A DNA stretch of 64,000 nucleotides from NCBI GenBank assembly GCA_018645265.1, contig JABGOS010000088.1, positions 11,083-75,082 on the forward strand. Direction: 5' to 3'. The stretch comes from Deltaproteobacteria bacterium (GTDB lineage: Bacteria > UBA10199 > 2-02-FULL-44-16 > JAAZCA01). The notes beneath the pieces were generated by a model that made no database searches, had not been told where the DNA came from, and saw nothing but the letters and a program-made list of their open reading frames with translations. This document shows positions 928-53,846 of the stretch, one piece after another. How positions within the stretch are numbered: position 1 is the first letter of the stretch; each line of letters opens with the position of its first letter. The translations under genes and the position numbers were made by a program.

Positions 928-940
928 TAATGAGAGGCAC

Positions 941-6754: not shown

Positions 6755-7422
6755 AGATATCTCCCGATAATTGTAGAACCTGAGATCACCCTATCCCCCT
6801 TCTTCACATCCACCATCGTCTCTGGTGAAAGATAGAGATCGACCCTTGATCCAAATCTTATCAGACCGAATCTGTCACCCCTTTCAAGCGATGCACCCTC
6901 CTTGAAATAGCAGATGATACGCCTGGCTATTAAACCAGCTATCTGAACCATCACTATCTCACGCCCTTCGTCATCCTCTAGCACCAAGAGATTTCTTTCA
7001 TTTTTCTCAGAAGCTTTGTCCAGACTGGCTACAAAAAACTTTCCCGCAAAATAACGGATCTTCTTCACAGTAGCACTTACAGGGAACCTGTTGATATGAA
7101 CATTAAGAACGGACATGAATATGCTGACTTTCGTTGTTTTCTTCCCAGTCTCCGGTGCAACTATGTCATTCTCAACTTTCAGAACACGTCCATCCGCTGG
7201 CGATATTATCAACCCTTCACCCTTTGGAACTGTGCGTTCAGGATTTCTGAAGAAATAGGTCACAAAGGCTGCCACCCCTATGAAGAACATAGCAACTGAA
7301 CTCAGTTCGACGGCAAAGAAAAAAAGCGATATTACGGCAGCTATTGCAATAAAGGGATGCCCCTCCTTCGCGATATACATCTGCCGCGGCATCGGCCTAT
7401 ACGAATCTATCAATTTTTCCAT
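6751..7422 (-). CDS. psd: Phosphatidylserine decarboxylase-related protein (short, archaeal-type Psd proenzyme)
   Basis: Overlaps pssA by 4 nt, which is the classic psd-pssA pairing. N-terminal TM segment and C-terminal FGSRVDLY (GS processing-site-like). Start chosen at MEKLIDSY (an AAGGA lies 11 nt upstream). The track ORF extends to 7512. Confidence 0.55.
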   Translation of the reverse strand: MEKLIDSYRPMPRQMYIAKEGHPFIAIAAVISLFFFAVELSSVAMFFIGVAAFVTYFFRNPERTVPKGEGLIISPADGRVLKVENDIVAPETGKKTTKVSIFMSVLNVHINRFPVSATVKKIRYFAGKFFVASLDKASEKNERNLLVLEDDEGREIVMVQIAGLIARRIICYFKEGASLERGDRFGLIRFGSRVDLYLSPETMVDVKKGDRVISGSTIIGRYL

Positions 7423-7584
7423 AGGGTAGATATCCTTGTAAGTATGCTTTATTAAACGCCTTCCACCAGCTATCCCGGCAGATAACATGCACCGATAGCG
7501 ACAAGAGTGCAAATCTTATTGAAGTGGTAATGCGATGAACGAATCTGGGACTTATACGAGCCTCGGCAACCTGCAGCCGTTCAA

Positions 7585-7821
7585 TCAGTCCTTACTAGCC
7601 CTCTTCCTGTAATCACAAAGAATATCCTCAATCATATCCCGACCACGCAGTTTTTCCTTCTGCATCTCTTTTCTTTTCAACTCTTCTATAGGTGTAAGAT
7701 ATGGCTTATTATTGAACTTTTCAAGTCTACGCTCAAAATCGACATGCTCGTCATAGAGCATCTTAAGTGCATCATCACTTTCCATGTACTGGTTAATCAA
7801 CTCGATATCACGCTGTTCCAT
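7585..7821 (-). CDS. DUF465/YdcH-like small protein
   Basis: 78 aa coiled-coil with a pattern resembling E. coli YdcH (L..EH..L..I....K...LK..KL.LKD.I..IL). Confidence 0.5.
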   Translation of the reverse strand: MEQRDIELINQYMESDDALKMLYDEHVDFERRLEKFNNKPYLTPIEELKRKEMQKEKLRGRDMIEDILCDYRKRASKD

Positions 7822-8037
7822 GAAAACCTCCTTGAAAGTAAAAAAACCTGAGCAATGCAGTCGCCCAGGCCTTGAAAATTAAAATTTATTTTCAGGGCGG
7901 GCATCTTATTTCGACCGAGCCCACCCTGGATCTCGATCTTTCATATATAGAATGTTACAGTAATGACTCTAATGTGTCAATAAATCACTTGTTTTCATTA
8001 GCTTTTTCCATTAGTTGAGGGGCCAAGGGGGTATTTT

Positions 8038-8457
8038 ATGAAACAGGAAATTCACTCATTTACATTAAAATCCAGCCAATACACTGACATTATTGACATT
8101 ACTGAAAAGGCAAATCAATTCATCGAACAAGCTGGCATCAGAAAGGGTCTTTTTACCGCTTCAGTACCAGGGTCAACTGCTTCAATAACAACCATCGAAT
8201 ACGAGGACGGCGTCCTTGAGGATTTGAAGAATGCTATCGAGAGAATCGCCCCTCAAGGTATGAAGTACGATCATGATGCAAAGTGGGGTGATGGAAATGG
8301 TTACTCGCATGTGCGCGCAGCACTTCTCAAGCCCTCCCTCTCACTTCCTGTCGAAAAGGGTCACATCATGCATGGCACATGGCAACAAATCGTTTTGATG
8401 GATTTTGATAGCAGGGCAAGGAATCGTAACATAATTTTTCATGTCATCGGTGAATAG
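8038..8457 (+). CDS. yjbQ: YjbQ/UPF0047 family secondary thiamine-phosphate synthase-like protein
   Basis: 139 aa with the TASITTIEYEDGVLEDL core and YSHVRAAL. A strong RBS (AAGGGGG) lies upstream. Confidence 0.75.
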   Translation: MKQEIHSFTLKSSQYTDIIDITEKANQFIEQAGIRKGLFTASVPGSTASITTIEYEDGVLEDLKNAIERIAPQGMKYDHDAKWGDGNGYSHVRAALLKPSLSLPVEKGHIMHGTWQQIVLMDFDSRARNRNIIFHVIGE

Positions 8458-8483
8458 AATACAAGACCAGCAGAAATATATTT

Positions 8484-10016
8484 TCAGATTTTCATTTCAC
8501 TACAAACTGACTCTGCAGCTTTGACAACTTCACCGCCTCTGACCATCTCAATACATCGATTGATGTCCAATCTATACTCCCTATCCTCATCGATTTTGTC
8601 TACAACCTTTCGCACTAATTCAAATACAGCACTCGTCCCCAGACCCGGTTTTCCATGCTTGTTCTGAAGATCGATAGCCTGACATGCGGCGAACAACTCT
8701 ATAGCCAGAATAATCTCTACATTCTCAATAATCTGAAGAGCCTTTCTCGCTCCGATCGTTCCCATGCTGACATGATCCTCTTGTCCACCGAATGTAGGAA
8801 TGGAATCAACCGATGATGGATGTGCGAGAACCTTATTCTCTGAAACCAAAGCGCTCATAGTCACATGTGGTGTCATAAGCCCTGAGCTCAATCCAGGATT
8901 TGGCACCAGACTCTTAGTAGGTATTTCGCCTGCAATCGGTGTCGTCAACACTGCTACCCTTCTCTCTGAAATACTCCCTAGCTCCGCTGCCGCAATTGCA
9001 AGCATGTCCATCGCAAAGGCTAGCGGCTCACCATGAAAGTTTCCACCGGACAAAATCTCATCATCCTTAGCGAAGAGTAGCGGATTATCTGTACAACTTC
9101 CTGTCTCTCGAAGCACGATATCCCTGGAATATTTTGCTGCATCCTTAACCGCGCCATGCACTTGAGGAATACATCTGAAGGAATAAGGATCCTGCACCCT
9201 TCCACAATCTCTATGATCAGCTATAATTTCGCTATCACTTAGAAGTATTCTCATATTATCCGCTGTCGCCATCTGTCCAGGATGAGGACGCAATTTATGA
9301 ATCCGTTCATCAAATGGTCTTGCGGAAGCCAGATCACCTTCAACGGAAAGTGCACCCACGATGTCAGCAACCTTAATAAGATTCTCCATCTTGATATGCG
9401 CCATACATCCAATCGCTGCTATAGCCTGCGTGCCGTTTATAAGGGCGATGCCTTCCTTTGCCTGTAACTTTATTGGCTCGAGGCGTTCAGTCTTCAAAGC
9501 TTCCGCAGCGGGCATAATCAGCCCCTTATAATAGACCTCGCCCCTTCCAATCAAGGTCAACGCAAGATGAGCCAGCGGAGCCAAATCACCACTAGCGCCA
9601 ACTGACCCTTTCTCCGGAATTACAGGTATTAGATCGCGGTTAATCATATCGAGAAGCAACTTGAATGTTTCCAACCTGATTCCAGAATAACCAACTGCAA
9701 GAACGTTAGCCCTAAGAAGCATTATCAACTTAGCAATATCAGTTCGAAGAGGATCACCCACACCCACTGCATGTGATATGATTAAATTCTCCTGGAGTTT
9801 CTCAAGATCTTCATGGGAGATGTGACAGCTGGCCATATTTCCAAAACCAGTATTGATTCCATAATAGGGTTTTTCAGAGGAGAGTTTCCCTTCAACAAAT
9901 TCGCGCACCTTCTTTATTCTAGAGATAGTTCCTCTTGACGGCTCAACAGTTTCGCCAGATATAAACCTTCTTATCTCATCTAATGTAAAACCTTTTCCAT
10001 CAATTTTAATAGCCAT
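8484..10016 (-). CDS. hutH: Histidine ammonia-lyase (aromatic amino acid ammonia-lyase family)
   Basis: MIO-forming GASGDLAPLAHL triad. 510 aa is typical of HAL. Confidence 0.85.
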   Translation of the reverse strand: MAIKIDGKGFTLDEIRRFISGETVEPSRGTISRIKKVREFVEGKLSSEKPYYGINTGFGNMASCHISHEDLEKLQENLIISHAVGVGDPLRTDIAKLIMLLRANVLAVGYSGIRLETFKLLLDMINRDLIPVIPEKGSVGASGDLAPLAHLALTLIGRGEVYYKGLIMPAAEALKTERLEPIKLQAKEGIALINGTQAIAAIGCMAHIKMENLIKVADIVGALSVEGDLASARPFDERIHKLRPHPGQMATADNMRILLSDSEIIADHRDCGRVQDPYSFRCIPQVHGAVKDAAKYSRDIVLRETGSCTDNPLLFAKDDEILSGGNFHGEPLAFAMDMLAIAAAELGSISERRVAVLTTPIAGEIPTKSLVPNPGLSSGLMTPHVTMSALVSENKVLAHPSSVDSIPTFGGQEDHVSMGTIGARKALQIIENVEIILAIELFAACQAIDLQNKHGKPGLGTSAVFELVRKVVDKIDEDREYRLDINRCIEMVRGGEVVKAAESVCSEMKI

Positions 10017-10052
10017 ATCCTGAACCCCCGAATGATAACTAGTATCTAATTA

Positions 10053-10751
10053 TCATTTACCTTTAAAACCTATTTCCGCATCAGACTGTCTCACATAGTT
10101 TGGAACCAACATTGTCAAATCATCACCCTCATGCGATTCGAACTTGGCAAGCGCTACAAGGGCTAAGTTATGTGCCATAGGCAATACCTCATTGCCCTGC
10201 GCGATCCTAATAGTGTCACCCAACTCATCCTCCAGAAACTTATGATACTCCAACGCCCCATCACCAACCGCATAGCAAGTCGTCCCTATAGATTTCACCT
10301 CTTCAACCAATTTTTCTGGCGATAGCACGCACTCATCCATTGTCGGAATAGAAATCTTTTTTCCATCTCTCTTCCAAAGAGCAGCATATAGCTCCCCCCT
10401 TCTCGCATCTATCAAAGTGAGGATAGATTTTTCAGCATCGCTTCCATTGATTGAAAGGGACTTCAAAGATGACACACCGACAATCGGAATCCCCAAGGAA
10501 AGGGCAATTCCCTTTGCCGTCGCAAGACCAATTCTCAGCCCCGTAAATGAGCCTGGACCCACCGCAACCGCTACACCCTCTATATCCTTAAGCTTCCAAT
10601 TGCTCTGCTGAAAAAGGGTATCAATAGTCTCTAGTAATTTAGCTGAATGTGTATCAGGCTTGGACTGCTGGATCTGCGAGATACAACTCTCCCCTTCGGA
10701 TAAAGCGAATGAACCGCGCATCGATGTGGTATCTATAGAGAGGATCTTCAT
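10053..10751 (-). CDS. tsaB: tRNA threonylcarbamoyladenosine biosynthesis protein TsaB
   Basis: N-terminal MKILSIDTTS and YeaZ-like fold. 232 aa. Confidence 0.8.
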   Translation of the reverse strand: MKILSIDTTSMRGSFALSEGESCISQIQQSKPDTHSAKLLETIDTLFQQSNWKLKDIEGVAVAVGPGSFTGLRIGLATAKGIALSLGIPIVGVSSLKSLSINGSDAEKSILTLIDARRGELYAALWKRDGKKISIPTMDECVLSPEKLVEEVKSIGTTCYAVGDGALEYHKFLEDELGDTIRIAQGNEVLPMAHNLALVALAKFESHEGDDLTMLVPNYVRQSDAEIGFKGK

Positions 10752-12106
10752 TACATGCCTAATGTATTTTTAATCCAAGCACTTACACCCCATATGCTAT
10801 CAATATCCTTTAAGGTAATAAGAACCATAAATGACATCAAAATGATGAATCCAGTCTGATTTGCGATAGATCTGAACTTTGCACTTAGTGGCTTCCTCTG
10901 GATCGCCTCGATCCCAAGGAACATGAGATGTCCACCATCAAGCACAGGAATAGGCAGAATATTCAAGATTGAGAGCTGTAGGCTTAAAAAAGCCATAAAA
11001 TAGAGAAAGTGCCCAAGCCCTGATGCAGCAGCCTGTGCGGACACCTTTGCGATTACAATGGGGCCACCCAGCACCTTATAGGATAGCTTCAGTGTAATCA
11101 GCCTGTACAGAACTTCAAACGTAAGCTTAGCTAGTTTTATATCCTCTTTAACTCCCAGAATAATTGAGTCTACGAAACCATAACGATAGACTTTCTGAGG
11201 ACCGATATTTCTTCCATTCGTATATATACCGACCACCCATCTACCGCTCTCTGCGCTATAGGTCGGCTGAATCTTGAAATTCTCTCTTGTACCATCATCC
11301 CTACTCACCGAAATTGAAGTCTCCTCACCTCCGGATGCATTGACGCTAGCAGAGAAGTCATAGAAGTCAGCAACTGCCCTACCATCATATGACGTGATGA
11401 GGTCACCCGGTTTCAAACCCGCCTTTTCAGCCGGGCCCCCAGGCACCAGCGAACTGACCTCGGCCTTATAGCCGAGAAAGAAAACCGGTTCGACTCCCAG
11501 ATATCCACCTTTTATTTCAGGCAGTTCACCTACGACGACCTCCTTCTCAATTACCTCCCCATCCCTCATCACCTTCAGTGAGACATTCTGACCGGGACTG
11601 AGCAAAATTCTATTGATGGTGTCAGACCACAGCTTCATCTCAGCACCATCAATAGAAAGGATTTTATCGCCCTTCATGAGTCCTGCCACCTCTGCCGGTG
11701 ACTCAGCTTTGATACCAATGAGAACTGGAGGTTCATGTAGATAGACCGGTTCTGTACGACCTATCATAAAAACTATCGGCATCAGGACTAAACAGAGCAC
11801 CATGTTCATAATTGGACCGAACGCTACGACCTTCGCCCTTGCCCAAACGCTTTTCTGTGCAAACGCCTGAGGATCATCTGCTCCCTCATCGGTAGGATCC
11901 TCTCCGAGCATTCTCACATATCCACCAATCGGAAATAATGAAATACGGTAATCCGTATCACCCTTTTTGAATCCAATAAGCCTAGGACCGAATCCCAAAG
12001 AGAAAGCGTCGACGCGTATGCCGGCACGCTTTGCCATTATAAAATGCCCCAACTCATGTATGAAGATTAATATTCCAAGTGTTATTACGAAGTAGATAAA
12101 AGTCAT
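10751..12106 (-). CDS. rseP: RIP metalloprotease RseP (site-2 protease, two PDZ domains)
   Basis: HELGHF zinc motif in the first TM helix, PDZ repeats, and a C-terminal LDGG motif. Sits downstream of dxr as in many bacteria. Confidence 0.85.
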   Translation of the reverse strand: MTFIYFVITLGILIFIHELGHFIMAKRAGIRVDAFSLGFGPRLIGFKKGDTDYRISLFPIGGYVRMLGEDPTDEGADDPQAFAQKSVWARAKVVAFGPIMNMVLCLVLMPIVFMIGRTEPVYLHEPPVLIGIKAESPAEVAGLMKGDKILSIDGAEMKLWSDTINRILLSPGQNVSLKVMRDGEVIEKEVVVGELPEIKGGYLGVEPVFFLGYKAEVSSLVPGGPAEKAGLKPGDLITSYDGRAVADFYDFSASVNASGGEETSISVSRDDGTRENFKIQPTYSAESGRWVVGIYTNGRNIGPQKVYRYGFVDSIILGVKEDIKLAKLTFEVLYRLITLKLSYKVLGGPIVIAKVSAQAAASGLGHFLYFMAFLSLQLSILNILPIPVLDGGHLMFLGIEAIQRKPLSAKFRSIANQTGFIILMSFMVLITLKDIDSIWGVSAWIKNTLGM

Positions 12107-12181
12107 AATTCAGCGCCTAAGTGTGTTTGTATTTGATTGTCTGAGTTTAAATAAACAACAGATTAAAACAAATATTGAATG

Positions 12182-13327
12182 TTATATGAGCCCGGATGCC
12201 TTCTCCCTCGCCCATCTATCGATATCCACTATCTCATCTATTGAATCAAAATCATGAGGATCGTGAGCATCCATGGTCCCCCTGACCACGCGATATATAT
12301 CTCCAAATTTTATACTGTTCTTCAAAAATGCATCTACAGCAATTTCATTTGCAGCATTCAAAACTGCTGGCATGGAACGACCCACCTCTAATGACTCAAA
12401 TGCAAGATTAAGACATGGGAATTTTTCTCTATCCGGATCCTCAAATGTAAGTTCGCCAATCTTCTTGAGATCCAACGTATCCACGCCGCTCTCTATCCTC
12501 TCCGGATAGGATATGGCATAAGCTATTGGTGCCCTCATATCCGGAACTCCTAGTTGAGCTACAACGCATCCATCACGATACTCAACCATAGAATGAATTA
12601 TACTTTGAGGATGGACGACCACATCTATCTGCGCCGGATCTACATTGAAAAGCCATTTAGCCTCGATAACCTCCAACCCCTTATTCATGAGTGATGCTGA
12701 ATCGATAGTTATCTTCGCACCCATCAACCACTTCGGATGTTTCAGGGCCGCTTCAGGTGTAGCATTATCTATTTCATCCTTACCCTTACCACGGAATGGA
12801 CCACCGGAAGCTGTAAGAAGGATTCTCTTCAGATCCTCATGTCTGTGACCGACGAGCGATTGAAAAATCGCCGAATGCTCGCTGTCTATAGGAAGGATCT
12901 CTACGCCATTCTCCTTGGCTAACCTAGAAACAAGCGCCCCGGCAACGACCATCGTCTCTTTATTTGCCAAGGCTAATCTCTTCTTACTTTTAATAGCTGC
13001 GACTGTGGGTTTCAATCCTGCTGCGCCAACAATTGCAGAGACAACTGTATCTGCCTCTGGATGCGCTGCCACCTGACAGGCCCCACTTATTCCGTGTACT
13101 ATTTCCGGTTTCTCCTTCTGCAACATGCCCCGCAACTTATCCGCTGCTTCCGAATCCCTAACAGATACGAGTTTCGGACGAAACATCTCTATATGCTTAC
13201 TCATCATTTCAACATCATGCCCCTCTGCCAAGGCCACGACATTGAACTTATCCGGGTGTCTCCCCACGACATCCAACGTGCTGAGACCAATTGAGCCTGT
13301 GCTTCCTAGTATAGATAGAGATTTCAT
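12182..13327 (-). CDS. dxr: 1-deoxy-D-xylulose 5-phosphate reductoisomerase
   Basis: [20 protein letters not shown] motif. Start placed at MKSLSILGS, which is preceded by GGAGAG. The track ORF begins 18 nt further upstream. Confidence 0.9.
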
Positions 13328-19578: not shown

Positions 19579-22500
19579 TCAAGCAGGGGTATTCCTTTTC
19601 TTCCTTGAAATTACCCTTGTAGTCATGAGCATCAGCAACGAACCTAGGAGGTAGATTATGCTGGTCGAGCTTCCTGCTGCCTGTCCAGCGATCAGTGAAC
19701 AACCTTCGCGGCTCCACGTCTTCGCGTAGTTCGCGGGGTTACCACCTACCTCGTATCCATCAGGCTGACCGTCGCCATCGGAATCGGCATTTGTCGGATC
19801 AGATTCCAACCAGTTTCCTTTACCATCCTGATCGCGCTTACCGTTACAGTTTAGATCCTCACCAAGTCCGCTTGAAGATGTGAAACCATCTGTCAATCCG
19901 TCTTGATCTGTATCCATCTCGAGTGCGTTCGTTTCGGAACCCATATCGAAGACACCATTCTGGTTCTTATCTTCGCCGAGACTTACTGTTCCATCGGACA
20001 GAGTCATCGGTCCATCAGGAATACAGTCACCATCGGTATCGATATTCGTTGCGTCCGTGCCGTATTTGAGCTCGAACCCATCGTTCAATCCATCATGATC
20101 CGTATCTGCTTCGAAAGGATCCGTCTCACTCAAGTTAGGCTCGTACGTACAGTTATGATTGATATCCTCATCACCATCCCAGACACCATCACCATCAGTA
20201 TCCGGATTCTGAGGATCTGTTCCTAGATCCTGCTCACAGAGATCCGTTAGTCCATCGCTGTCGGAGTCTTTGCCACCAGGGGCACCTTCTCCACCAACAC
20301 AGTTAGGATTGTCATTGAGTCTACAACCAGCTTCTTCTTCAGAATCTTTATTATTGTCAGCATCGGAATCGCGCATACATGGGTTGGAACCATTCCACTC
20401 AACCATGCTTCCGTTATATTCCTCAGCATCCTTCAGACCATCGTTATCGGAGTCCTTCGAACGTGGGTTCGATACCATCGGTATACCACCGATATTGTCC
20501 CAGATCTCTCCATCGATGATCTTCGTCAGGAAGGCCTGTCCTACTACCAAGTCACCAGTTACTTCGACGCCATCCTCAAGGCCATCACCATCCGTATCCT
20601 TGTTCGTAGGATCGGTATCCTGCATCATAGCATCTATACATCCCTCGGATCCCATCTGGTTCAGGTTCACGAGGTTGAAGCCAGGCTGGCCATCACGGTT
20701 CTCTTCACCATCTGGCAGGCCATCACCGTCTGTATCAGCATTACGCGGGTTCGTGTAGATCGGCATTCCATCGCCATTGACCTTCACATGAGTGTTGGTC
20801 TCAGCGAAATCATCTGCACCATCATCATCTGAATCAGCCTTCAGAGGATTCGTTTCAATCAGTGCCAATGCATCCATCGTAATGGCACCCTGAGAGTTGT
20901 CGTTACCATCGAAGCCCATGCCATCAAGATTCTTATCCTCTTGAGCATCGTACAATTCATCCTGATCGCGATCGATGAAGAATGCGAGCACCCTTCTGAT
21001 AGGATCATCAGCGTAGACACTCTTGAAAGGATCACAGCTGTAGTCGACATAAGGATTCTTGTCAGGGCTGTATTCATCGCTCGTGCTACCTGTTGCTGCA
21101 CTTTCAGGACATACATCGATGTTATCAGCAACTGTATCACCATCGGAATCAGCATCCCAGTACTTCAGCATCTGAGACTGAGGTGTCGTACCAGCAGCAT
21201 TCGTTGAATCACACTCTAATGTTGGCTGCTCTACACAATCCGGAATACCGTCACCATCGACATCACCCTGGCAGATACCCATGAGCTGCTCTCTTGTGAG
21301 ACCGTCGATCTCGAATAGATCTGGAACACCGTTCGTATCGTCATCTTTGAGCGCCACCGGCGAACCATCAAGTTCATCCCAGTATACGTACTCGGCATCG
21401 ATACCCCAGAGGATATCCTTAGGATGACATTTATTCTCCTTTTCACATTCCTTTACCTGATCTGCTATGGTAGTAGCAGTTGGTGTTGCATGGAGAGGAC
21501 ACATGTCAACGCCTCTTGGCGTCTTAGTGGTCGAATCGCAAGTAAAGGAAGCTGTCGGTACTGGGATTATGGTAAGATCAACATCTGCATTGATTGTACA
21601 TGTCTTCACACATCCGCCATCCTTGCCAGTTCCACTATTACCACCACCATCACACCAGTGATCACCATCTGAATCCGACTTCCATGGATTCATCTCGTTA
21701 TTATCTATATCAAGGTCACCGTCGAAGTTCGCACGATCACCCAAGCTTCTATTGCGACACATCAGCATCTGTAGGCGTCTCTCCGTCAACTCATCAACAA
21801 CCTCTGCGCCTGAACTGATGTCACCCCAATTACCCTGCTTCGGATCTTCATAGTACGTATCACAGTATGGATCATCCTTAGCACAGGTTACAATGTACCA
21901 CATATATCTGACACCGGTCTTACTCTCATTGCCTGAGCCCAAAGTACACTCGATTGGCTTCTGAGTAGTCTTGCTCTTAATAGGACTGCGAGTATCATAA
22001 GACCCGCCAAACTTGTAGAGCACGCCCTTCGTAACCGAGGTACCTACGCCGGTGAAGAAATGCTGGTTGCGATCTTCCTGGCCATCCCACACTCCATCAT
22101 TATCACTATCTTTATCTAGAACGTTCGGCTGGCCATCACCATCACTATGTTCAGTCATCGTCTCTTTGCCTACGCCATCTGGAATACCATCACCATCTGT
22201 ATCAGGCTCGTAGAAGTTAGTTTCCTTACCTTCATCCCACACGCAATCGCGATCGAGATCCTCATCATCATCCGGCAGACCATCGCTATCGGTATCAAAT
22301 CCCTTAGCTAGACCACCGCCCGTACCCCTGCTCGCTGCATCTGGAATTTTTCTTACGTCACGACAATGCGCGTAACCTGTCATTACATTGGAACCACCAC
22401 TACCCTTGCCACTGAGCGAACCAAATGGAGAGGAAATGTTTACATCCGGACACTGAATGTCAGGATCGTTTTCTGTAGAAGTGATATGAATGATCTTGCT

Positions 22501-23730
22501 CGCCTGACCAACGCCACCGCCGTTCATTTCAGGAACCAATATTATTCTTGAGAAATCGACCGGGACATTAATGCGGAAAGTTCCTGTGGTATTGTCCATA
22601 CCATAATCAACCGCCTTACCTACAAATGCGATCAACTCACCATCTTCCTTAGCAGTTCCACTCTGTGATTTTCCACCAATGGAGTAGACCTGAAGAGCAC
22701 TCAAACCACCGGCAGCTTCATCGGGACAGCTGTCATCGCTCAAACCTTCAACATTAGCAATGTAGCCCTCTATGATTATCGATGATGGAGTTTCATCACC
22801 TGGTTCATAGATAGCACTCTTATCAATAATTCTTACCTGGTACGGCTGCTTCGATGAAATCCAATCTTCAGAACTCTTAAGCTGTGTAATCGAAAGTCTT
22901 GCACCTGTAGAGAGATACATAAAACCATCATCATCCACTGAACTGATTGTGCCTGCGTTAGGAAGGATAAGGTTATTTGCTGACTCTCCAGGGTTATCAA
23001 AGACGATACCACTGTTTTTCGTATTTCTTAAGCTACAGTCAGAGTAAATGACGTTACCAGCAGCTGTCGGACTCATATAGAATCCATCATCTCCACCGTT
23101 AACCTCAACGTGACTGGCAGAGCTATCGTTTCCATAGAAACAAACACCCTTCATCCCATCCGGGATATTCTGAATTTCGAGGTTTTGAATCTCGACCCAG
23201 TCAACGTCCTCTTCTATTATAACCACGCAATCAAATCCCGATGGAATCTCAGCAGCATCGAGGACGGTTCTCTTTCTCTCCGTCACCTCATTGATACAAG
23301 CGCCTGCATCATCCGTCTCATAGCAGACCGTCTCCTCATCCCATGTATCACACGTACCATCGCCGTTGGAATCGTTGAGACATCCGCCGCTTATAACGAC
23401 GTGATGATCGTTCGATCCATCAGCCCTTATAACGAGAGGACCTTTCATGGCGATCCGCTCCTCCGCAATGGCAATCATCTCGCCACATGCGTAGTGCTGG
23501 CTGGTCGGCCCAAGGTTTGCGGAGTGCATTGCGACAGGCAACGTCAGCTTATTCTTATTGCCCGACTTTGCATCCCACTGACTGCTGGTGACCGTACAGC
23601 TCTTCACACTCATGTGATTATACTTGAAGCCTGCGTCGGCTCTAGATGAAATCACAATGGTGAGCGCGAAGACGACTATCGCCAGCGTTATCATGTTTCG
23701 TGATTTTACGTTATGCATGGTTTCCTCCAA
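19579..23730 (-). CDS. Giant (1383 aa) secreted calcium-binding protein with ~25 thrombospondin type-3-like Asp repeats and a C-terminal Cys-containing sorting-like tag
   Basis: Signal peptide. Reiterated DTDGDGxPD, DSDNDGxxD and DTDHDGLND units. The C-terminus reads GCSLIAGQAAGSS, then a hydrophobic helix IIYLLGSLLMLM, then RVISRKKR. Confidence 0.7.
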   Translation of the reverse strand: MEETMHNVKSRNMITLAIVVFALTIVISSRADAGFKYNHMSVKSCTVTSSQWDAKSGNKNKLTLPVAMHSANLGPTSQHYACGEMIAIAEERIAMKGPLVIRADGSNDHHVVISGGCLNDSNGDGTCDTWDEETVCYETDDAGACINEVTERKRTVLDAAEIPSGFDCVVIIEEDVDWVEIQNLEIQNIPDGMKGVCFYGNDSSASHVEVNGGDDGFYMSPTAAGNVIYSDCSLRNTKNSGIVFDNPGESANNLILPNAGTISSVDDDGFMYLSTGARLSITQLKSSEDWISSKQPYQVRIIDKSAIYEPGDETPSSIIIEGYIANVEGLSDDSCPDEAAGGLSALQVYSIGGKSQSGTAKEDGELIAFVGKAVDYGMDNTTGTFRINVPVDFSRIILVPEMNGGGVGQASKIIHITSTENDPDIQCPDVNISSPFGSLSGKGSGGSNVMTGYAHCRDVRKIPDAASRGTGGGLAKGFDTDSDGLPDDDEDLDRDCVWDEGKETNFYEPDTDGDGIPDGVGKETMTEHSDGDGQPNVLDKDSDNDGVWDGQEDRNQHFFTGVGTSVTKGVLYKFGGSYDTRSPIKSKTTQKPIECTLGSGNESKTGVRYMWYIVTCAKDDPYCDTYYEDPKQGNWGDISSGAEVVDELTERRLQMLMCRNRSLGDRANFDGDLDIDNNEMNPWKSDSDGDHWCDGGGNSGTGKDGGCVKTCTINADVDLTIIPVPTASFTCDSTTKTPRGVDMCPLHATPTATTIADQVKECEKENKCHPKDILWGIDAEYVYWDELDGSPVALKDDDTNGVPDLFEIDGLTREQLMGICQGDVDGDGIPDCVEQPTLECDSTNAAGTTPQSQMLKYWDADSDGDTVADNIDVCPESAATGSTSDEYSPDKNPYVDYSCDPFKSVYADDPIRRVLAFFIDRDQDELYDAQEDKNLDGMGFDGNDNSQGAITMDALALIETNPLKADSDDDGADDFAETNTHVKVNGDGMPIYTNPRNADTDGDGLPDGEENRDGQPGFNLVNLNQMGSEGCIDAMMQDTDPTNKDTDGDGLEDGVEVTGDLVVGQAFLTKIIDGEIWDNIGGIPMVSNPRSKDSDNDGLKDAEEYNGSMVEWNGSNPCMRDSDADNNKDSEEEAGCRLNDNPNCVGGEGAPGGKDSDSDGLTDLCEQDLGTDPQNPDTDGDGVWDGDEDINHNCTYEPNLSETDPFEADTDHDGLNDGFELKYGTDATNIDTDGDCIPDGPMTLSDGTVSLGEDKNQNGVFDMGSETNALEMDTDQDGLTDGFTSSSGLGEDLNCNGKRDQDGKGNWLESDPTNADSDGDGQPDGYEVGGNPANYAKTWSREGCSLIAGQAAGSSTSIIYLLGSLLMLMTTRVISRKKRNTPA

Positions 23731-23777: not shown

Positions 23778-24911
23778 TTAGAATACAAACTGCAGAGTGG
23801 CTCCGCCACCGATGCCACCGCTGATCTGTCCCTGATGTCCATTGACATCTGAGTCTGTCGCTTCAAGAACGCTTCTCTCTGAAAAACCTGCGATCGGTAC
23901 ATCGAAGAATACATTACCCATGAGCCTTATGGCCGAGAGAATATCCTCCACACCACCGGTGTTGATCTGGATGCCGGCTGCGAGCATGAATCCGAGAATA
24001 CCGCGTCCCTGCTGTATCGGACCTGTCGCCGTACTGGCGAGATTTGCATATTCACCACCGAGATGGAACTGAGCACCAACTACGAGTGAAACAGAATCAT
24101 GGACCGGGATTACAGGTTCGAGACCTACAAATGCGGTTCCTCTGAAGCCAGCCTTCGGTTCGCTATCTACTGCACCGTTCGATGACATGATGCGGCTGGA
24201 GATAGGAATTCCTAGCAATGCACCGTATGAGAGGAAGAGACCTGAATGCTGCTGTGGCTTTCCCCACATCATAAGGCGACGTCTTCCCTCAAGGCTGATT
24301 TGAACCATGTGGCTAACTGCTCCACCGTCTCCACCCAAATCGCCCATATAGGACATATCACTGAAATCTCCATCGGTACCCTGGACCCATCCGCTACCGC
24401 TGTATCCATAACCAAGGCCCAAAACAAACTGATGCTCATCTACCTTGTCGGCATCTTTCGGTGTCGCTTTGCATGATTTGGAAGCAGCATCAAAAGTTTC
24501 ATCGCTATCACAAGGCTTACATACGCCCGCATCCACTTTCTTGCCTTCAAGAGCACACTCATCAGCAGTCTTCGGCTTCGGTGCGGCCATATCTTTTTCG
24601 ACATCGGCACGCTTCGGCAATGATGGAGCACTTGCCATACCATAAAAGCCAGACATTCCCTTGAACATCGGCAATGGAAGCTTGCCTGTGTGCATCTGGA
24701 AATAATCCTCACACTTAGCTGCGATAGGGGTGCCCTTCGTATGCCCTATGGTGCCGAGAAATTCGGACCAATCCTTCCCTGTGGCATCACCAGCATCAAA
24801 CATCTGTTGATCTGTATCTACCATTGAGCATCTAAATGTGATGCCATCCTTGAAATCCTGACACGCTTTGGTTGTACAACTCTTTAGTGTTCCGTCGCCT
24901 GCTGAAAACAT
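23778..24911 (-). CDS. Cys-rich protein with OMP-like beta-barrel C-terminal half (ends ...GGATLQFVF); no detectable signal peptide
   Basis: Strong RBS (AAGGAGG 7 nt before the ATG). The C-terminal 200 aa have alternating hydrophobic strands and a terminal Phe. Sits immediately upstream of the giant gene on the same strand with a 47-nt gap. Confidence 0.45.
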   Translation of the reverse strand: MFSAGDGTLKSCTTKACQDFKDGITFRCSMVDTDQQMFDAGDATGKDWSEFLGTIGHTKGTPIAAKCEDYFQMHTGKLPLPMFKGMSGFYGMASAPSLPKRADVEKDMAAPKPKTADECALEGKKVDAGVCKPCDSDETFDAASKSCKATPKDADKVDEHQFVLGLGYGYSGSGWVQGTDGDFSDMSYMGDLGGDGGAVSHMVQISLEGRRRLMMWGKPQQHSGLFLSYGALLGIPISSRIMSSNGAVDSEPKAGFRGTAFVGLEPVIPVHDSVSLVVGAQFHLGGEYANLASTATGPIQQGRGILGFMLAAGIQINTGGVEDILSAIRLMGNVFFDVPIAGFSERSVLEATDSDVNGHQGQISGGIGGGATLQFVF

Positions 24912-25266
24912 AATTACCTCCTTGAAATCTTTTTCCCCCGAAAAAGAATGAAGTGACTATTGTCCATTATCCTCCATCTTCATTATCGAACTTAGACGTA
25001 AAAAGTTGCTGGTTTTTTTATCGGTTTTTTTTGGAACTTCAGAAGCGCCCAAATAGGATAAAAAGGACGCTATATCATTAATCATTACATATACTTACAA
25101 AATATGCATTATTTCGGAGCTTTGCATATTTTTTTTGAAAATATCTATTTTTTTCTCCATGAAGAAATTTTTTATTAATTTTACCGAACACATTTTTTGA
25201 TATATTTAGCATTATATAAACGCTCTATACCCAGCCCATCTTCGTCATTTCTCCCAATTTGTTGCT

Positions 25267-25289
25267 AAAAAAGTGTCCGACACTTTTTT
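25267..25289. repeat. REP-like palindromic element copy 1 (AAAAAAGTGTCCGACACTTTTTT)
   Basis: Exact core GTGTCCGACAC flanked by an A-run and a T-run. Lies upstream of the RAYT gene. Confidence 0.75.
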
Positions 25290-25426
25290 GCTGCACATTG
25301 ACCACTTTTCATACACCTACAAGATTCATATCATTGATATATATGGGTTTTTTATGGAATAAATATTGCTCTCTCACATCTCAAATATCAATCGTAACAC
25401 CTATCCAGGAGGTTATTTTGACCAGA

Positions 25427-26029
25427 ATGCCACTTATCCATATCCCGGGGGGTCTCTACTCTGTGGTCAGCAAATGCAATAACAATGAATTTTTGTTCGA
25501 CTCTAAGGATAAATTCGAGCTGTATCTCAGGCATTTAATGGAGTGTAAGAAAGTGCAAGGCTTCAAGATCTACGATATCGTATGCATGTCGAACCATGTT
25601 CATGAACTGTATGAAGTGCCTGAAAAAGTAACTATCGCTAAAATTCTGCAGCGAGTTAAGGGTAGTTTTGCCATAAAATTCAACGTTATTTACAAGAGAA
25701 GCGGTCATTTCTGGAAGAACAAACCATTTTATAGGGTGGTTGAAGATGAGGAGCACGCCATCGCATGCATCAACTATTTCCACGAAAACCCCACAAGGGC
25801 AGGTATGGTGCTGCATCCATCCCTATGGCCCTTCTCCGGATATAACTTCCATGTACATGGTGATCGAACAGGCCTGATAGGAAAGCTACTTGACCCACTA
25901 CCCGGCTACAGCGAATTCTCGCCATTTGATGAGATGAAGATAGATGTTGAAAAGGTCCTAGGCTCTAAAAAACATAAATTTTTAGGCAGCTCTATCTTTC
26001 AGGAATCTATGAAAACAAAGTACAAATGA
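25427..26029 (+). CDS. IS200/IS605-family HUH/Y1 transposase, REP-associated tyrosine transposase (RAYT)-like
   Basis: HuH motif (MSNHVHEL) and a Tyr motif followed by NP.RAG (YFHENPTRAGMV). AGGAGG at 25407-12. The track ORF 25259.. extends 5' across the REP copy and an AT-rich tract, which is unlikely to be coding. TTG at 25418 is an alternative start. Confidence 0.65.
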   Translation: MPLIHIPGGLYSVVSKCNNNEFLFDSKDKFELYLRHLMECKKVQGFKIYDIVCMSNHVHELYEVPEKVTIAKILQRVKGSFAIKFNVIYKRSGHFWKNKPFYRVVEDEEHAIACINYFHENPTRAGMVLHPSLWPFSGYNFHVHGDRTGLIGKLLDPLPGYSEFSPFDEMKIDVEKVLGSKKHKFLGSSIFQESMKTKYK

Positions 26030-32452: not shown

Positions 32453-33994
32453 ATGTCTAAACTGTTCTCCATCTTAGCACTTATAACAGTGCTTTTCCTT
32501 TCTCCAATGAGCCATGCAGACAACCAAATGACGGAAACGTTTCTAAACGACTTGGACTATCTGCATGAAGTGGGCGGTGACATATATTGTTATTGGGATC
32601 TCAAGAAGGAGATGGATGGGGTCGACTGGGATGAGCTCTATGAAGAGGCACGCTCACAGATGACCTCAGCTACTACGATCAAAGGATACTATACCATCCT
32701 TCGCAAGATGATAGCAGGAGTACACGATGGACATGTCAATATCTCGATGTTGAAAAATCAACTCAGCAATCCATACTATCTACCGCTAAGATTCAAAGAA
32801 GTTGAAGGAAATAAAATCGTAATCTCCGCTATAAAAACGGGAGCTTTTATAGATCAACCGCCCTTCACACTTGGTGATCAGGTCGTCGCTATGAATGACA
32901 TTCCAATAGAGGATGTAATCACGGACTGGCAGCAATATATGTCGGGCTCAACGGAACAACTGAGACGTTTCTATACGATCAAATTCATGCACAACTGGCC
33001 GCCATACAATGAACCTCCAATGAGCAATTCAATTCTCACGATCAAAGATGGAGGGACGACTCGCAAAGTTGAAGTTCCCTGGATCATCTATGACTATAAC
33101 GATGACCCAACATATAAGATGGAAGAGTACCGCATCAACGAGGATGTGGAAGCAAAGATTCTCCCGGGGAATATCGGATATCTCAGAGTGAGCGCAATGT
33201 ACGCCCCTGTGGATGAGAAATACATTCCATATATCAGATCTCAGATGGAGAAACTTCTGAACACCGATGGGCTCATCATCGATGTCCGAAATAATGGTGG
33301 CGGTTGGGGTGAAGTTGGTGATGCAATAATCAGCTACCTAATTGACGAACCTAAAATTCGTTACAAAGCCTCGCCTAGGATGTCTCCTCAGCTATTATAT
33401 GCAAGACCCCACTTTTATTCCGCATTCGAAGCGGACTTTGAAAACGATCCTCTATTTGCAAAATGGAAGGATTTCATCATTGAACCAGCACCCAAGGAGC
33501 TTCGATACAAGGGAGAAGTCATTACATTGATCAATTCAAAGTGTTTTTCAGCATGCGATACTTTCGCTGACAGCATCGCATCAAACAAGCTTTCAAAGAT
33601 GATGGGTACACCGACAGGAGGCGGCACCGGCTATCCAATGTATATTGAGATGCCTAGCGGAATGAGCGTAGCCAGATTCTCAACTACTCGAGGGTATTCC
33701 AACTTTGGCAGGCTCTTGGAGGGCACTGGTACAATTCCGGATATCTACGCCAGACTAACAAATGATGATATTAGGAATCGCCGCGATTCCGTTCTGATGA
33801 GCGCATATGAAATGTTGCTTGGCGATAATCAGCTAACAAAATCACACTCTCTCAAAAACGCAGTCACATATTCATACTCCGGGAAGAAGGAACTAGTTTT
33901 CTTTCCACTCGCCGATGAAGAGATACTGCCTCAGAATATTGAAGAGGAGAGGCTCATCAACCTGAGCAGCCACGAATTTGATGAGCTTTGGTGA
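32453..33994 (+). CDS. Secreted S41-family (tail-specific/C-terminal processing) peptidase
   Basis: Signal peptide. DVRNNGGGW matches the S41 LRNNGGG motif. A PDZ-like segment lies upstream. Confidence 0.65.
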   Translation: MSKLFSILALITVLFLSPMSHADNQMTETFLNDLDYLHEVGGDIYCYWDLKKEMDGVDWDELYEEARSQMTSATTIKGYYTILRKMIAGVHDGHVNISMLKNQLSNPYYLPLRFKEVEGNKIVISAIKTGAFIDQPPFTLGDQVVAMNDIPIEDVITDWQQYMSGSTEQLRRFYTIKFMHNWPPYNEPPMSNSILTIKDGGTTRKVEVPWIIYDYNDDPTYKMEEYRINEDVEAKILPGNIGYLRVSAMYAPVDEKYIPYIRSQMEKLLNTDGLIIDVRNNGGGWGEVGDAIISYLIDEPKIRYKASPRMSPQLLYARPHFYSAFEADFENDPLFAKWKDFIIEPAPKELRYKGEVITLINSKCFSACDTFADSIASNKLSKMMGTPTGGGTGYPMYIEMPSGMSVARFSTTRGYSNFGRLLEGTGTIPDIYARLTNDDIRNRRDSVLMSAYEMLLGDNQLTKSHSLKNAVTYSYSGKKELVFFPLADEEILPQNIEEERLINLSSHEFDELW

Positions 33995-44228: not shown

Positions 44229-45881
44229 TTACAGATACTTAAGACTTGGAATGATTTTACGAGATCCGTAAAATAGGATACAAGGCATGATGAACATGAA
44301 AACAATATAAAGATATATCGATAAATTTGACTTCGATCTTACGTCATTGGCTATAAACGAACACGCCCCCCCATCCGCAGCGCCTGCGAAATGACCGCTG
44401 CCCCCAGCGCTCGTCTTCTCTTCAGGACTCTGAGCAGGTGAACCACCCCCTCCTCCGCCAGCAGCTACATCGTCTGGACAGACTTTCGTCTTGGGGTCGT
44501 AGACATCCGGTATCCCATTTGTATTCGCATCGAGCCATCCCCCCTCCATGAGATCGGGACATGAATCACCATCCGAGTCACCATCCCTGGCATTCGAAAC
44601 ACCATCACAATCGATATCGGTTAGCATTTCTGGTGAAGAACATTCACCCTCTCCAATAACCATTCGATAATCGAAATCCGGTATACCATCCCCATCAAAA
44701 TCACCCAGAGTTTCGACACCATCGCTTAAGCCGTCGGAATCTGTATCGACTATCGAGGGATCGCTCTCATTGTGATCGACCCAACCATTTGCATTTAAAT
44801 CCTCCAGACCATCCTCCAGGCCATCGCCATCGGAATCCGGATTGAGAGGATTCATCTCGTTAGGTTTTTTAAAATTCGTTCCGGATGGCTGAAGGCCATG
44901 GCATCCGTTGTATGATATCGGCTGGATCCTTCCCATCTCCACCCCATCAGACAGGCCATCACCATCGGTATCGCATTCATTTATGAGAGTACCTGCTCGA
45001 ACCTCGTCACCATCGGAGACACCATCACCATCCGAATCAGCCCTGATAGGATCAGATTCAGATGAACCGTTTATCTCACCATCTCCATCGCGATCCCCTT
45101 CCTCACCATCTAGAAGGCCATCGTTATCTGAATCAGGATTCAATGGGTCCATCTCCAGCCAAATGACATGTTCCTCATCCTCAGTAAGTTCACCATCACG
45201 AAGACCATTGAAATTAGGGTCTTCAAGTCCATCAACAACTCCATCATCATCGGTATCGTCGAGACTTGGATCGGTCATACTGCTGACGTCGAGGTCGAAC
45301 AGCGCGGCTACGTTATGAATACCTGGCAAAGAATCATCATATGAAATTACATTTTCAAATGCCGACACTAGATTGTCATCCAATATTTTTTTACAGCGCG
45401 ATGTCGGAATATACTTAGGGCGACTTGGCATACGATCAATCAGTTGCAGCAGTTCTTCCTTCGTAACCCCCACCTCGACACCGTCAGGAATACAGTCACC
45501 ATCGGAATCACTTTTTAGAGGATCGAGTCGATCTGGAAAGCGAATGCGAACTTCTTCATTACCCAAAAGCTCTTCCACCCTGCCAATATGAAGGCGCTCC
45601 TCACCATCGCTCAAGCCATCTGCATCGGAATCTGGATTGTTTAAATCTGTCTCACCATTTTCAGGCTCCCAAACTCCGTCACCATCATGGTCCTCAGCCT
45701 CATCTAGCAGACCATCGCAGTCGGCATCCATGTTACAACCATCACTCTCAACCGTAGCGGGTTCACCATCAGCCGCAAATGCATCGGGAACAATAGATAA
45801 GGAGAGAACAATAAGACCCACCACAATAAGCAGCGCAACGTTATGGCCAATAAAGACCATTATTTTAATAGCTCTATTCAT
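44229..45881 (-). CDS. Secreted calcium-binding protein with thrombospondin type-3-like Asp repeats (550 aa) and C-terminal Cys-containing sorting-like tag
   Basis: Signal peptide. Repeats DSDADGLSDG, DTDDDGVVDG, DSDGDGLEDG and DTDSDGLSDG. A Gly-rich spacer is followed by GGACSFIAN, then TM IYLYIVFMFIMPCILFY, then GSRK. Confidence 0.65.
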   Translation of the reverse strand: MNRAIKIMVFIGHNVALLIVVGLIVLSLSIVPDAFAADGEPATVESDGCNMDADCDGLLDEAEDHDGDGVWEPENGETDLNNPDSDADGLSDGEERLHIGRVEELLGNEEVRIRFPDRLDPLKSDSDGDCIPDGVEVGVTKEELLQLIDRMPSRPKYIPTSRCKKILDDNLVSAFENVISYDDSLPGIHNVAALFDLDVSSMTDPSLDDTDDDGVVDGLEDPNFNGLRDGELTEDEEHVIWLEMDPLNPDSDNDGLLDGEEGDRDGDGEINGSSESDPIRADSDGDGVSDGDEVRAGTLINECDTDGDGLSDGVEMGRIQPISYNGCHGLQPSGTNFKKPNEMNPLNPDSDGDGLEDGLEDLNANGWVDHNESDPSIVDTDSDGLSDGVETLGDFDGDGIPDFDYRMVIGEGECSSPEMLTDIDCDGVSNARDGDSDGDSCPDLMEGGWLDANTNGIPDVYDPKTKVCPDDVAAGGGGGGSPAQSPEEKTSAGGSGHFAGAADGGACSFIANDVRSKSNLSIYLYIVFMFIMPCILFYGSRKIIPSLKYL

Positions 45882-46081
45882 GTATACCCTTTTCGACTGA
45901 CGTAAAAATATGTTGCGTGGTTTTTCTAATACAGGAGCGATCCCCCTACTAGCCGCAACGCAGCATAATTATAGGTTTTTTTGTTGTCATCACGCGTCAC
46001 ATCCCTAACGCACTGTACGTTGAATTTACGCAACTTTCTGTAAGGATAGTCGATAAGTTCTCCACGGAAAGGATACCCAAG

Positions 46082-46966
46082 ATGTCATCGATATGTAACC
46101 CTCTATCGGGGGAGAAACGCGACTACTGCATGGCACTCGATCAACAGTGCGATGCACTCCTCTCTGGGGACAAGAAGAGCATCAAGCTCGATTTGATGAA
46201 CGGTAAGTCATACAACTATACCGATATCGATCTATGCCGATCCTTCCTAAAATTTCAAGTGACGCACGGTGCAGTACCACCAGGCTTTAAAGAAATAAAG
46301 AGAACGACTGGGGGAACAACACCTACGACTACATACACGCCCAAAAGTACACCTTCCACAGATCTCGTTGCAAAAAGATGCATTGCAGCCGTACCTGTCG
46401 GAGTTCTTCCGGAATGCCAAAGACTGATGTCCATATGCTATTCGAAAGCGACTGGACCTTACCAACTTCCAACTAGCAGCGGCTTACAAACAATAGCTGA
46501 TCAGGACCAATGCTTCTCATTGGCTATATTTTATTCAAAATTCAGTGCACCCACTACAGACACGACCTATATCTCGACTGACACGAAACCGGGATGGACT
46601 GTGAATGGCAAGACAACTTTTGCAGCCAGCTTTGCAAGGGTCAGATTCGCACCCAATAAGAGTGAAGTAATCCACACACAGAAGCTAACTCTACCATTTC
46701 ATTATGGATGGACGATAAAGGGCATCAAAATCACAATTGCATATAAGTTACAGCAAAGAAGCGATTCTCGATATGCTATCCGCTACAACATCTATTACGG
46801 CGATACAAAAGTACCGGATAAAATCACAGATATGGACCTAACGAGGGCAGTAGGATTTGGATTCAAAGCTGGCGATACTATGACGGATATCCTCTCCTTT
46901 GGCGTAACGCTAGGCAATGAAGGCGATTTCGGAAATATCCAATCTATAGATATCGTAAAACTATAA
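46082..46966 (+). CDS. Hypothetical Cys/Thr-rich protein
   Basis: No recognisable motifs. Divergent from the 550-aa TSP3 gene. An in-frame upstream stop fixes the start. Confidence 0.4.
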   Translation: MSSICNPLSGEKRDYCMALDQQCDALLSGDKKSIKLDLMNGKSYNYTDIDLCRSFLKFQVTHGAVPPGFKEIKRTTGGTTPTTTYTPKSTPSTDLVAKRCIAAVPVGVLPECQRLMSICYSKATGPYQLPTSSGLQTIADQDQCFSLAIFYSKFSAPTTDTTYISTDTKPGWTVNGKTTFAASFARVRFAPNKSEVIHTQKLTLPFHYGWTIKGIKITIAYKLQQRSDSRYAIRYNIYYGDTKVPDKITDMDLTRAVGFGFKAGDTMTDILSFGVTLGNEGDFGNIQSIDIVKL

Positions 46967-47002
46967 TAAGAATGATTTCTTACGACATGAATGAGCGCTG
47001 CT

Positions 47003-50373: not shown

Positions 50374-50431
50374 AACTCCTCCTTTGCTAATTTGGCACGA
50401 ACGGCAAAAGTCTATCTATTATATGGTCTCG

Positions 50432-53324: not shown

Positions 53325-53846
53325 TCAAGAATATGATACCAAAGAATGAATCGGCACATCACCGATCTTCTCCCGACCATTCAAGAAAGCCAGTTCAACA
53401 ATGAATGCACATTCAACTACGTCACCACCCTGTCTCTTTATCAATTCGCATGCCGCACCTGCTGTACCACCGGTTGCCAGCAGATCATCGATGATCAACA
53501 CCTTCTCACCTTTTTCAATAGCATCTGTATGCATCTCAATAGTTGCGGAGCCGTACTCCAAATCATATGAGATATCAATAGTCTTGTAAGGCAATTTACC
53601 TTTTTTCCTAACCGGGACAAAGCCTGCACCGAGCTGATGCGCAAGTGGCGTTCCGAATAAAAAACCTCTCGACTCTATACCAACAACAGTATCGATCTCC
53701 TGATCCACATATCTCTCAACTAAGCTTCTAATAGTCTCTTCAAAAGCTGCGTGGTTCTGAAGCAATGGAGTTATATCCTTAAAAACGATCCCTGGTTTGG
53801 GAAAATCGGGGATATCCCTGATGTGTTTCTTAAGTCTATCCTGCAT
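53325..53846 (-). CDS. apt: Adenine phosphoribosyltransferase
   Basis: [25 protein letters not shown]-binding [13 protein letters not shown]. Confidence 0.9.

Follow-up and report, generated by a model that had tools for sequence, protein, structure and literature searches.

A conserved cysteine motif in the C-terminal tails of thrombospondin type 3 repeat proteins from an uncultured deltaproteobacterial lineage: a candidate Cys-type sorting signal

Introduction

Two genes in a 64,000-nucleotide stretch of a bacterial genome (assembly GCA_018645265.1, contig JABGOS010000088.1, positions 11,083 to 75,082; the whole stretch is called the window here) encode proteins with thrombospondin type 3 (TSP3) repeats that share a C-terminal tail composed of a small cysteine motif, a spacer, a hydrophobic helix and basic residues. 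Both genes lie on one 158-kb contig of a metagenome-assembled genome (MAG) labelled 'Deltaproteobacteria bacterium'. The locus raises the question of whether this tail is a signal for processing and sorting or a plain membrane anchor. At roughly even odds (about 0.5), we read it as a Cys-type (MYXO/JDVT-like) sorting signal of divergent sequence, with a CPBP/Mrt protease encoded elsewhere in the genome.

Cys-containing tripartite signals comprise MYXO-, JDVT-, Synerg- and CGP-CTERM, the predicted sorting enzymes of which are CPBP/Rce1-like Mrt proteases (Haft, bioRxiv 10.1101/2023.06.07.544157). In Haft's set, MYXO-CTERM was shared by 3-73 otherwise unrelated clients per proteome; the MrtJ protease was adjacent to JDVT-CTERM in 16 of 17 cases. 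Cleavage of MYXO-CTERM by MrtX was shown experimentally to depend on the Cys (Guo et al., PMC11980579). The definition of these signals and of their CPBP proteases is recent and covers few lineages, and the tag described here would extend them to a deep uncultured 'deltaproteobacterial' group.

Results and Discussion

The Two TSP3 Proteins and Their Tails

The gene for the 1383-aa protein occupies positions 19579..23730 on the minus strand; the NCBI annotation starts at 23718 and gives 1379 aa (MBT3181830.1, HN337_04880). The 550-aa protein is encoded at 44229..45881, likewise on the minus strand (MBT3181852.1, HN337_05000), and represents the family member found beside topA across the lineage. 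Reading the sequences, we predicted a Sec signal peptide for both proteins, MHNVKSRNMITLAIVVFALTIVISSRADA in the 1383-aa protein (23632..23718, minus strand) and a segment ending in ...PDAFA in the 550-aa protein (45774..45881, minus strand), for which AlphaFold2 (AF2) modelled a helix at residues 2-37.

That the cargo consists of TSP3-repeat proteins, as a first-pass annotation of the window had proposed, was borne out. The 550-aa protein belongs to TSP3_bac (PF18884) with 29.1 bits at a Pfam cutoff of 25; the 1383-aa protein remained below this cutoff with 19.5 bits but matched the TSP3 region of CglD (E = 3e-45), as did the 550-aa protein (E = 3e-36). The AF2 model of the 550-aa protein was mediocre (predicted local distance difference test, pLDDT, 65), and a Foldseek search of the PDB with this model yielded nothing significant, the top non-significant matches being the signature domains of thrombospondin-1 and COMP. 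BLASTP aligned the two window proteins over the TSP3 repeats and on into the tails (31% identity). Judged by this alignment they are paralogues, so that the tail common to both is inherited rather than coincidental.

The 1383-aa protein ends in ...WSREGCSLIAGQAAGSSTSIIYLLGSLLMLMTTRVISRKKRNTPA. Its tail, on the minus strand throughout, is made up of the motif REGCSLIAG (19684..19710, with the codon of Cys1344 at 19699..19701), the spacer QAAGSSTS (19660..19683), which leads from the motif to the transmembrane (TM) segment, the hydrophobic TM segment IIYLLGSLLMLMTT itself (19618..19659) and the basic cluster RVISRKKR (19594..19617), which is predicted to be cytoplasmic. The 550-aa protein, ending in ...AADGGACSFIANDVRSKSNLSIYLYIVFMFIMPCILFYGSRKIIPSLKYL, shows on the same strand the motif DGGACSFIAN (44346..44375; Cys507 codon 44361..44363), the hydrophilic, charged spacer DVRSKSN (44325..44345), the TM helix LSIYLYIVFMFIMPCILFYG (44265..44324) and a short basic patch, SRK (44256..44264). 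AF2 modelled residues 515-549 as one helix and the linker ahead of Cys507 (residues 469-505) as disordered, with pLDDT < 50. Both open reading frames (ORFs) thus have the tripartite tail of Cys motif, spacer, TM helix and K/R that had been noticed initially.

The two tails differ in how well they fit the family. When both window tails were left out of the profile and 323 ORF ends of the window were scored with it, the 550-aa tail obtained 35.3 bits (E = 1e-10); the 1383-aa tail, with 11.2 bits, did no better than a false positive, the C-terminus of adenine phosphoribosyltransferase (APRT). The 1383-aa tail belongs to the tag class only loosely. Its orthologues P0127 (83% identity) and P0128 (38%) have kept the Cys, the TM segment and basic residues, the tail of P0128 reading ...DGGCTMV...TM...RVRKVLRSR. 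The APRT C-terminus (window 53325-53846, minus strand) was the sole recurring false positive of the tail profile and scored approximately 11-14 bits, also in the related loci L003 and L018.

Conservation of the Cysteine Motif

More than 2100 homologues were found for the 550-aa protein, and tail statistics were derived from the best 120. The three-part tail terminates 103-105 of these approximately 120 sequences, so that the layout of processed C-terminal sorting signals, first seen in the two window tails, is present in the orthologues as well. Counted from the Cys, positions -4 to +3 follow the signature [D/G]-G-G-[A/S]-C-[S/T/A]-L-[V/I/M]. The Cys itself, claimed to be invariant on the basis of two sequences, was found in all 119 homologues with a recognisable motif. 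Gly at -3 and Leu at +2 occur in 86% and 84% of the tags, the two Gly residues before A-C are nearly invariant (86% and 65%), and Asp is present at -1 in 12%. Each position from -4 to +3 carries 1.0-6.2 bits, compared to 0.2-0.8 bits in the flanking linker rich in G, S, A, P and E, so the motif stands as an island of conservation well beyond chance, and the conservation in orthologues on which the interpretation as a signal depends was clearly found. An aromatic residue is located at -10 in 48% of the tags.

The spacer between Cys and helix has a median length of 11 aa and contains at least one charged residue in 87% of cases. The hydrophobic segment, with a median of 18 aa, is followed by about three K/R within the next eight residues, and Pro occurs in 59 of 105 TM segments at no fixed position. 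Two details of the first-pass annotation had to be revised at this point: it had given the motif as C-S-x-I-A and the spacer as Ser-rich, neither of which is general. Since the family conserves [DG]GG[AS]C[STA]L[VIM] (119 homologues) and mostly charged spacers instead, both details are accidents of the two window sequences. NCBI-named proteins with a GGACSL-type tail are annotated as 'hypothetical protein'; the distinct signature is missed by current annotation models, and a dedicated model would improve prediction of the surface proteome in these MAGs.

Six further invariant Cys residues of the family alignment can be read as three pairs, which leaves Cys507 as the odd, unpaired one. This fits a free thiol that becomes modified. 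A free Cys might equally serve a disulfide, and the tail may accordingly be conceived as an uncleaved bitopic inner-membrane anchor facing the periplasm, with the Cys motif forming, for example, an intermolecular disulfide to an outer membrane protein (OMP)-like neighbour. The long, charged stretch between Cys and helix would also suit such an anchor. However, the motif is conserved across the homologues and the sequence of the helix is not, which is the pattern of sorting signals and not of functional TM domains. Largely for this reason and those given below for helix loss and for MYXO-CTERM-bearing homologues, we consider a plain anchor unlikely.

Orthologues without the Helix

Twelve orthologues of approximately 900 aa end 5-16 residues after GGG[G/S]CSL[I/V] and have neither a TM nor a basic part. 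They form a clade with a mean pairwise identity of 48.6% (range 38-83%, n = 12). The short ends were verified at the DNA level in two genomes: in L001 (12700-12730) the stop codon is followed directly by the rplU promoter, and in L050 (8740-8800) it is part of an inverted repeat, resembling a terminator, that precedes guaB. Since GGGxCSL was kept in a clade without the helix, the motif is under selection even where the TM and basic parts are missing, which argues that the Cys motif is the functional core of the tag and speaks against a mere anchor. A helix that could be lost by 12 divergent orthologues while the motif was retained is dispensable, which is difficult to reconcile with anchoring as the sole function of the tail. 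The clade represents a natural experiment on which part of the signal is recognised and on whether the Cys could be modified without a membrane tether.

Taken by itself, this clade would fit a different explanation, according to which the Cys motif alone would direct a CaaX-like modification or attachment in the periplasm, with the TM and basic part as an optional tether that raises efficiency and with enzymes perhaps not of the Mrt type. The peak of conservation on C-S-L-[V/I] rather than on the helix agrees with this. As in the CaaX box of eukaryotes and archaea (Rce1, MmRce1), C-S-L-V consists of Cys, small, aliphatic and aliphatic residues, and in the helix-less clade the motif is almost C-terminal. 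Yet a true CaaX box requires that the Cys be exactly the fourth residue from the end, which is never the case here; 28-57 residues follow it in the TM forms and 5-16 in the helix-less clade. CaaX proteins are moreover cytosolic, whereas the proteins studied here are predicted to be Sec-exported, with the motif in the periplasm and no prenyltransferase context. We know of no periplasmic prenyl- or acyltransferase for such a motif. A lipobox ([LVI][ASTVI][GAS]-C, processed by Lgt/LspA) closes an N-terminal signal peptide, whereas the motif here is C-terminal, and the frequencies of Asp at -1 and Gly at -3 are unlike the Lgt lipobox and argue against Lgt/LspA- or signal-peptidase-type recognition before the Cys. 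As the full tripartite tail has in addition been kept in approximately 88% of the homologues, a signal consisting of the motif alone seems distinctly improbable. The same holds for the far-reaching version of this idea, namely that G-G-x-C-S-L-[V/I] marks a previously unknown periplasmic pathway with an optional TM tether, dedicated to one ancient TSP3 envelope protein embedded in the core genome; we would give it only a small chance.

Comparison with Named C-Terminal Signals

The tails were compared with the curated models of NCBIfam release 20, for which the cutoffs are 20 bits (TIGR03901), 15.85 bits (TIGR03382) and 27 bits (JDVT-CTERM). No NCBIfam CTERM model reached its cutoff for the window tails or for 89 tails of the family, as the first-pass annotation had anticipated in stating that the motif could not be matched to a named family. 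Neither window tail matched MYXO-, JDVT-, GlyGly- or PEP-CTERM (MYXO-CTERM at E ≤ 10). The 1383-aa tail obtained 14.5 bits with LPXTG (cutoff 15.9; the tail contains no LPXTG motif) and 13.6 bits with VPAMP (cutoff 32). Among the 89 family tails, JDVT-CTERM gave a weak sub-threshold match in ten (best E = 1e-3; one tail of the lineage was listed with 13 bits), MYXO-CTERM in four (best E = 0.014; one listed at 7.7 bits) and PEP-CTERM in one (E = 0.49), and no match to GlyGly-CTERM was listed at E ≤ 10. The weak best matches of the lineage tails are thus to JDVT- and MYXO-CTERM and not to the PEP, GlyGly or LPXTG types.

Homologues from elsewhere do bear recognised signals. The control P0116, a distant beta-helix/TSP3 homologue, passed TIGR03901 with 32.3 bits, the tail of a homologue from Sorangium (L029) passed TIGR03382 with 17.8 bits, and P0118, another distant beta-helix/TSP3 homologue, came near to passing the MYXO-CTERM model with 19.2 bits. 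The proteins studied here are therefore homologous to bona fide carriers of MYXO-CTERM, a relationship that speaks against a plain anchor. The suggestion of an undescribed class of signal stands to the extent that no named model fits; the architecture, in contrast, falls within the known Cys-type tripartite group. On the sequence evidence, the tag appears to be a so far unmodelled form of Cys-type CTERM signal, within the known group and no new class of architecture.

With MYXO-CTERM and its myxosortases MrtX, MrtC and MrtP the tag shares a signal peptide on the cargo, a disordered linker, an invariant Cys preceded by Gly, a TM helix and a basic cluster, as well as its occurrence on homologous TSP3/beta-helix adhesins, which carry MYXO-CTERM in Myxococcota-like genomes. 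It differs in having GGAC-S-L-[V/I] with a single Cys instead of GCGC, a long charged spacer of ~11 aa, a weaker, K/R-mixed patch (SRK in the 550-aa protein) and scores below cutoff, and in being found on one cargo family with no Mrt gene in the sampled DNA of the lineage. JDVT-CTERM with MrtJ (NF033191, NF033192), the most frequent weak match, is similar in its single invariant Cys and in having one or two clients per genome as far as seen. Here, however, its near-invariant D-P nine residues after the Cys (+8 to +10) is lacking, scores stay below 27 bits, the protease is not adjacent and the taxa are others. CGP-CTERM has G-P after the Cys, whereas the tag has S/T/A at +1 and Leu at +2, and the invariant Pro in the Leu-rich TM helix of the short Synerg-CTERM tag contrasts with the variable Pro noted above; neither model was matched. 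The two unusual traits of the tag are its long charged spacer and the helix-less clade.

Gly-Gly in the signature, the tripartite layout and the occurrence on surface proteins of diderm bacteria are also reminiscent of GlyGly-CTERM and rhombosortase. One may hence think of an enzyme of another class. The nearly invariant G-G might be the target of a rhombosortase, an exosortase-like enzyme might be involved, or a peptidase that processes C-termini in the periplasm might do the cutting, for instance the secreted S41 (C-terminal-processing-type, CPAF/Ctp-like) peptidase encoded in the window at 32453..33994 on the plus strand. In GlyGly-CTERM, however, there is no invariant Cys, and the motifs of the named signals abut the helix, whereas here the motif lies ~11 residues away. 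Among the 89 tails there was at most a single sub-threshold PEP-CTERM match, the window and its flanks revealed no gene for a rhomboid or exosortase, and the linkage of the S41 gene to tagged genes is not conserved in other loci. A processing enzyme of such a class is accordingly very improbable. A G|C autoprocessing site of the intein/Hedgehog type was considered and rejected, as no Hint domain follows the Cys.

The Processing Enzyme and a Proposed Path

No CPBP, rhomboid or exosortase gene was detected in the window, in agreement with the first inspection, which had seen no candidate processing enzyme there, nor was any found in the flanks (about 10 kb on either side) or in ~350 kb of related loci. 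The multi-TM proteins of the window are PssA, RseP, CdsA, two Na/H-exchanger-like proteins and FlhB, none of them with CPBP motifs, and precomputed Pfam calls covering the window and ~8-10 kb on each side contained no PF02517, rhomboid or exosortase. Gene-neighbour inspection and a motif-plus-TM scan of more than 20 loci revealed no CPBP gene beside tagged genes.

A myxosortase-family gene was present in a distant relative with a classical-type tag. In locus L040 ('Deltaproteobacteria bacterium UBA2385'), the ORF at 7382-8866 (minus strand) matched the myxosortase core NF040914 with 116.9 bits (cutoff 100). It is arranged back-to-back with a gene for a TSP3 protein (9227-12604, plus strand) that contains an internal GGSCSAL-TM-RRRR tag and, beyond it, a half resembling TraB/OmpA. 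This internal tag reached only 15.8 bits on TIGR03901, below the cutoff of 20. Since a tag beside a real myxosortase-family gene fails the model, failure of the model does not exclude Mrt processing; Haft (bioRxiv 10.1101/2023.06.07.544157) likewise pointed out that models may fail on tags of divergent lineages. A phmmer search of all loci with the Mrt core of L040 retrieved nothing in the lineage.

In the path that we propose, the TSP3-repeat protein would be exported by the Sec system via its N-terminal signal peptide, and its C-terminal helix would hold it in the inner membrane, the K/R patch facing the cytoplasm. The one Cys without a partner, that of [D/G]-G-G-A-C-S-L-[V/I], would be modified, probably lipidated, and a membrane-embedded CPBP/Rce1-like (Mrt-family) protease, presumably encoded elsewhere in the genome, would cut just after the Cys. 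In favour of such an enzyme, C-[STA]-L-[VIM] looks similar to the C-a-a-X sequences that proteases of the Rce1 type prefer. The Ca-binding adhesin might thereby be left anchored by its new C-terminus and be moved to the cell surface.

Distribution of the Tag

A local tail hidden Markov model (HMM) was run against all ORF ends in 814 kb of loci, of which ~350 kb belong to the lineage. It identified TSP3-family proteins only, true tags scoring 18.7-41 bits and all others ≤ 14 bits; most of this DNA comes from one syntenic neighbourhood and does not fairly represent whole genomes. The window also encodes a Ca-binding secreted protein of another type, a 731-aa RTX (HemolysinCabind) repeat protein (866-3061, plus strand), which is without the tag.

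Larger searches returned few tails. A tail-alignment search of an index of 5.8 billion proteins gave 249 candidates, none with E ≤ 10, the profile being too short for a database of this size. An exhaustive profile search of 1.84 billion representatives produced five matches below 1e-3, comprising three real tags (one TSP3 protein and two short fragments) and two spurious matches to internal GGAACTL repeats. The latter, P0121 and P0122, are unrelated proteins with 5-7 internal GGAACTL(K/V) repeats and stood at the top of this search. P0124, an 86-aa protein consisting of the tag only, was uninformative as it is located on a 505-nt contig. Any usable degenerate DNA pattern would catch only about 5 of the 21 real tags, and chance matches in metagenomes were estimated in the thousands.

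Several of these results weigh against a Cys-type signal sorted by a distant Mrt protease. In the sampled loci the tag is confined to one paralogous TSP3 family, with one or two members per genome neighbourhood and none on unrelated cargo, so a general sorting class is unproven; with five matches below 1e-3, two of them spurious, the exhaustive search had no power to detect other cargo. No CPBP gene (PF02517) occurs in ~350 kb of loci from ~21 related genomes, and systems of the JDVT type with few clients usually have an adjacent protease, unlike the situation here. The Cys is separated from the helix by ~11 mostly charged residues, compared to 5-8 in the classical-type tags P0118 and L040, and so long and charged a spacer would be awkward for an intramembrane active site. 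The orthologues that end shortly after the motif and the failure of all 89 family tails to reach a model cutoff add to this. The restriction to one protein family and the lack of a sorting enzyme near more than 20 loci would suit a plain anchor as well.

Genomic Context

The order HU-dprA-topA, one variable divergent gene and the TSP3 gene was found in the window and in L001, L003, L004 and L050. Downstream of the topA-linked TSP3 gene follow xerC-hslVU, rpsB-tsf, rplU or guaB, and the orthologues at this position have 382, 550, 909, 924 or 935 aa. In the window this conserved tagged locus spans 44229-50779, and it has been kept across genomes of 37-65% GC. Approximately 15 further tagged orthologues, in genomes of the same GC range, were obtained from a species-representative genome collection. 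MYXO-CTERM is expected in hosts from Myxococcota or Bradymonadales. The labels of tagged relatives are in conflict with one another ('uncultured Myxococcales', 'Bdellovibrio sp.', 'Pseudobdellovibrionaceae', 'Deltaproteobacteria', 'Pseudomonadota'). The divergent neighbour (46082..46966) was examined as a conserved partner and rejected; it is homologous only between the window and L003, and unrelated genes take its place elsewhere.

The gene of the 1383-aa protein adjoins rpsB in the window and in its closest relative, L006. An ORF of 377 aa (23778..24911, minus strand), ending in ...GGGATLQFVF, is located 47 nt upstream on the same strand; its C-terminus resembles that of an outer-membrane beta-barrel, and it showed no family match and no signal peptide at the called start. 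By analogy with TraB and TraA, its product is possibly a co-transcribed partner of the 1383-aa protein. A tagged adhesin adjoining an OMP-like ORF recalls TraA/TraB and modules of the MXAN_5598 type, and the fusion of TSP3, tag and TraB/OmpA in the L040 relative is similar to MXAN_5598 (PMC11980579). The gene order, however, is reversed here compared to TraA/TraB, from which the 377-aa ORF also differs in the features just mentioned. An IS200/Y1 transposase gene (25259-26029, plus strand) lies beside this ORF, and as the two adjoin, the 5' end of the ORF may be disrupted. The 669-aa gene upstream of P0128 was rejected as a counterpart of the 377-aa ORF since no similarity was found.

Two further genes of the window were recorded. 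A 211-aa protein (52535-53170, minus strand) without a signal peptide is weakly similar to Peptidase_C39 (E = 7e-5, short of the cutoff); it shares 63% identity with its positional counterpart in L003 and is thus better conserved than the TSP3 protein. An export protein of the FlhB/SctU family (Bac_export_2; 59407-60501, minus strand) is also encoded, from which a flagellar or type III export apparatus can be deduced for the organism.

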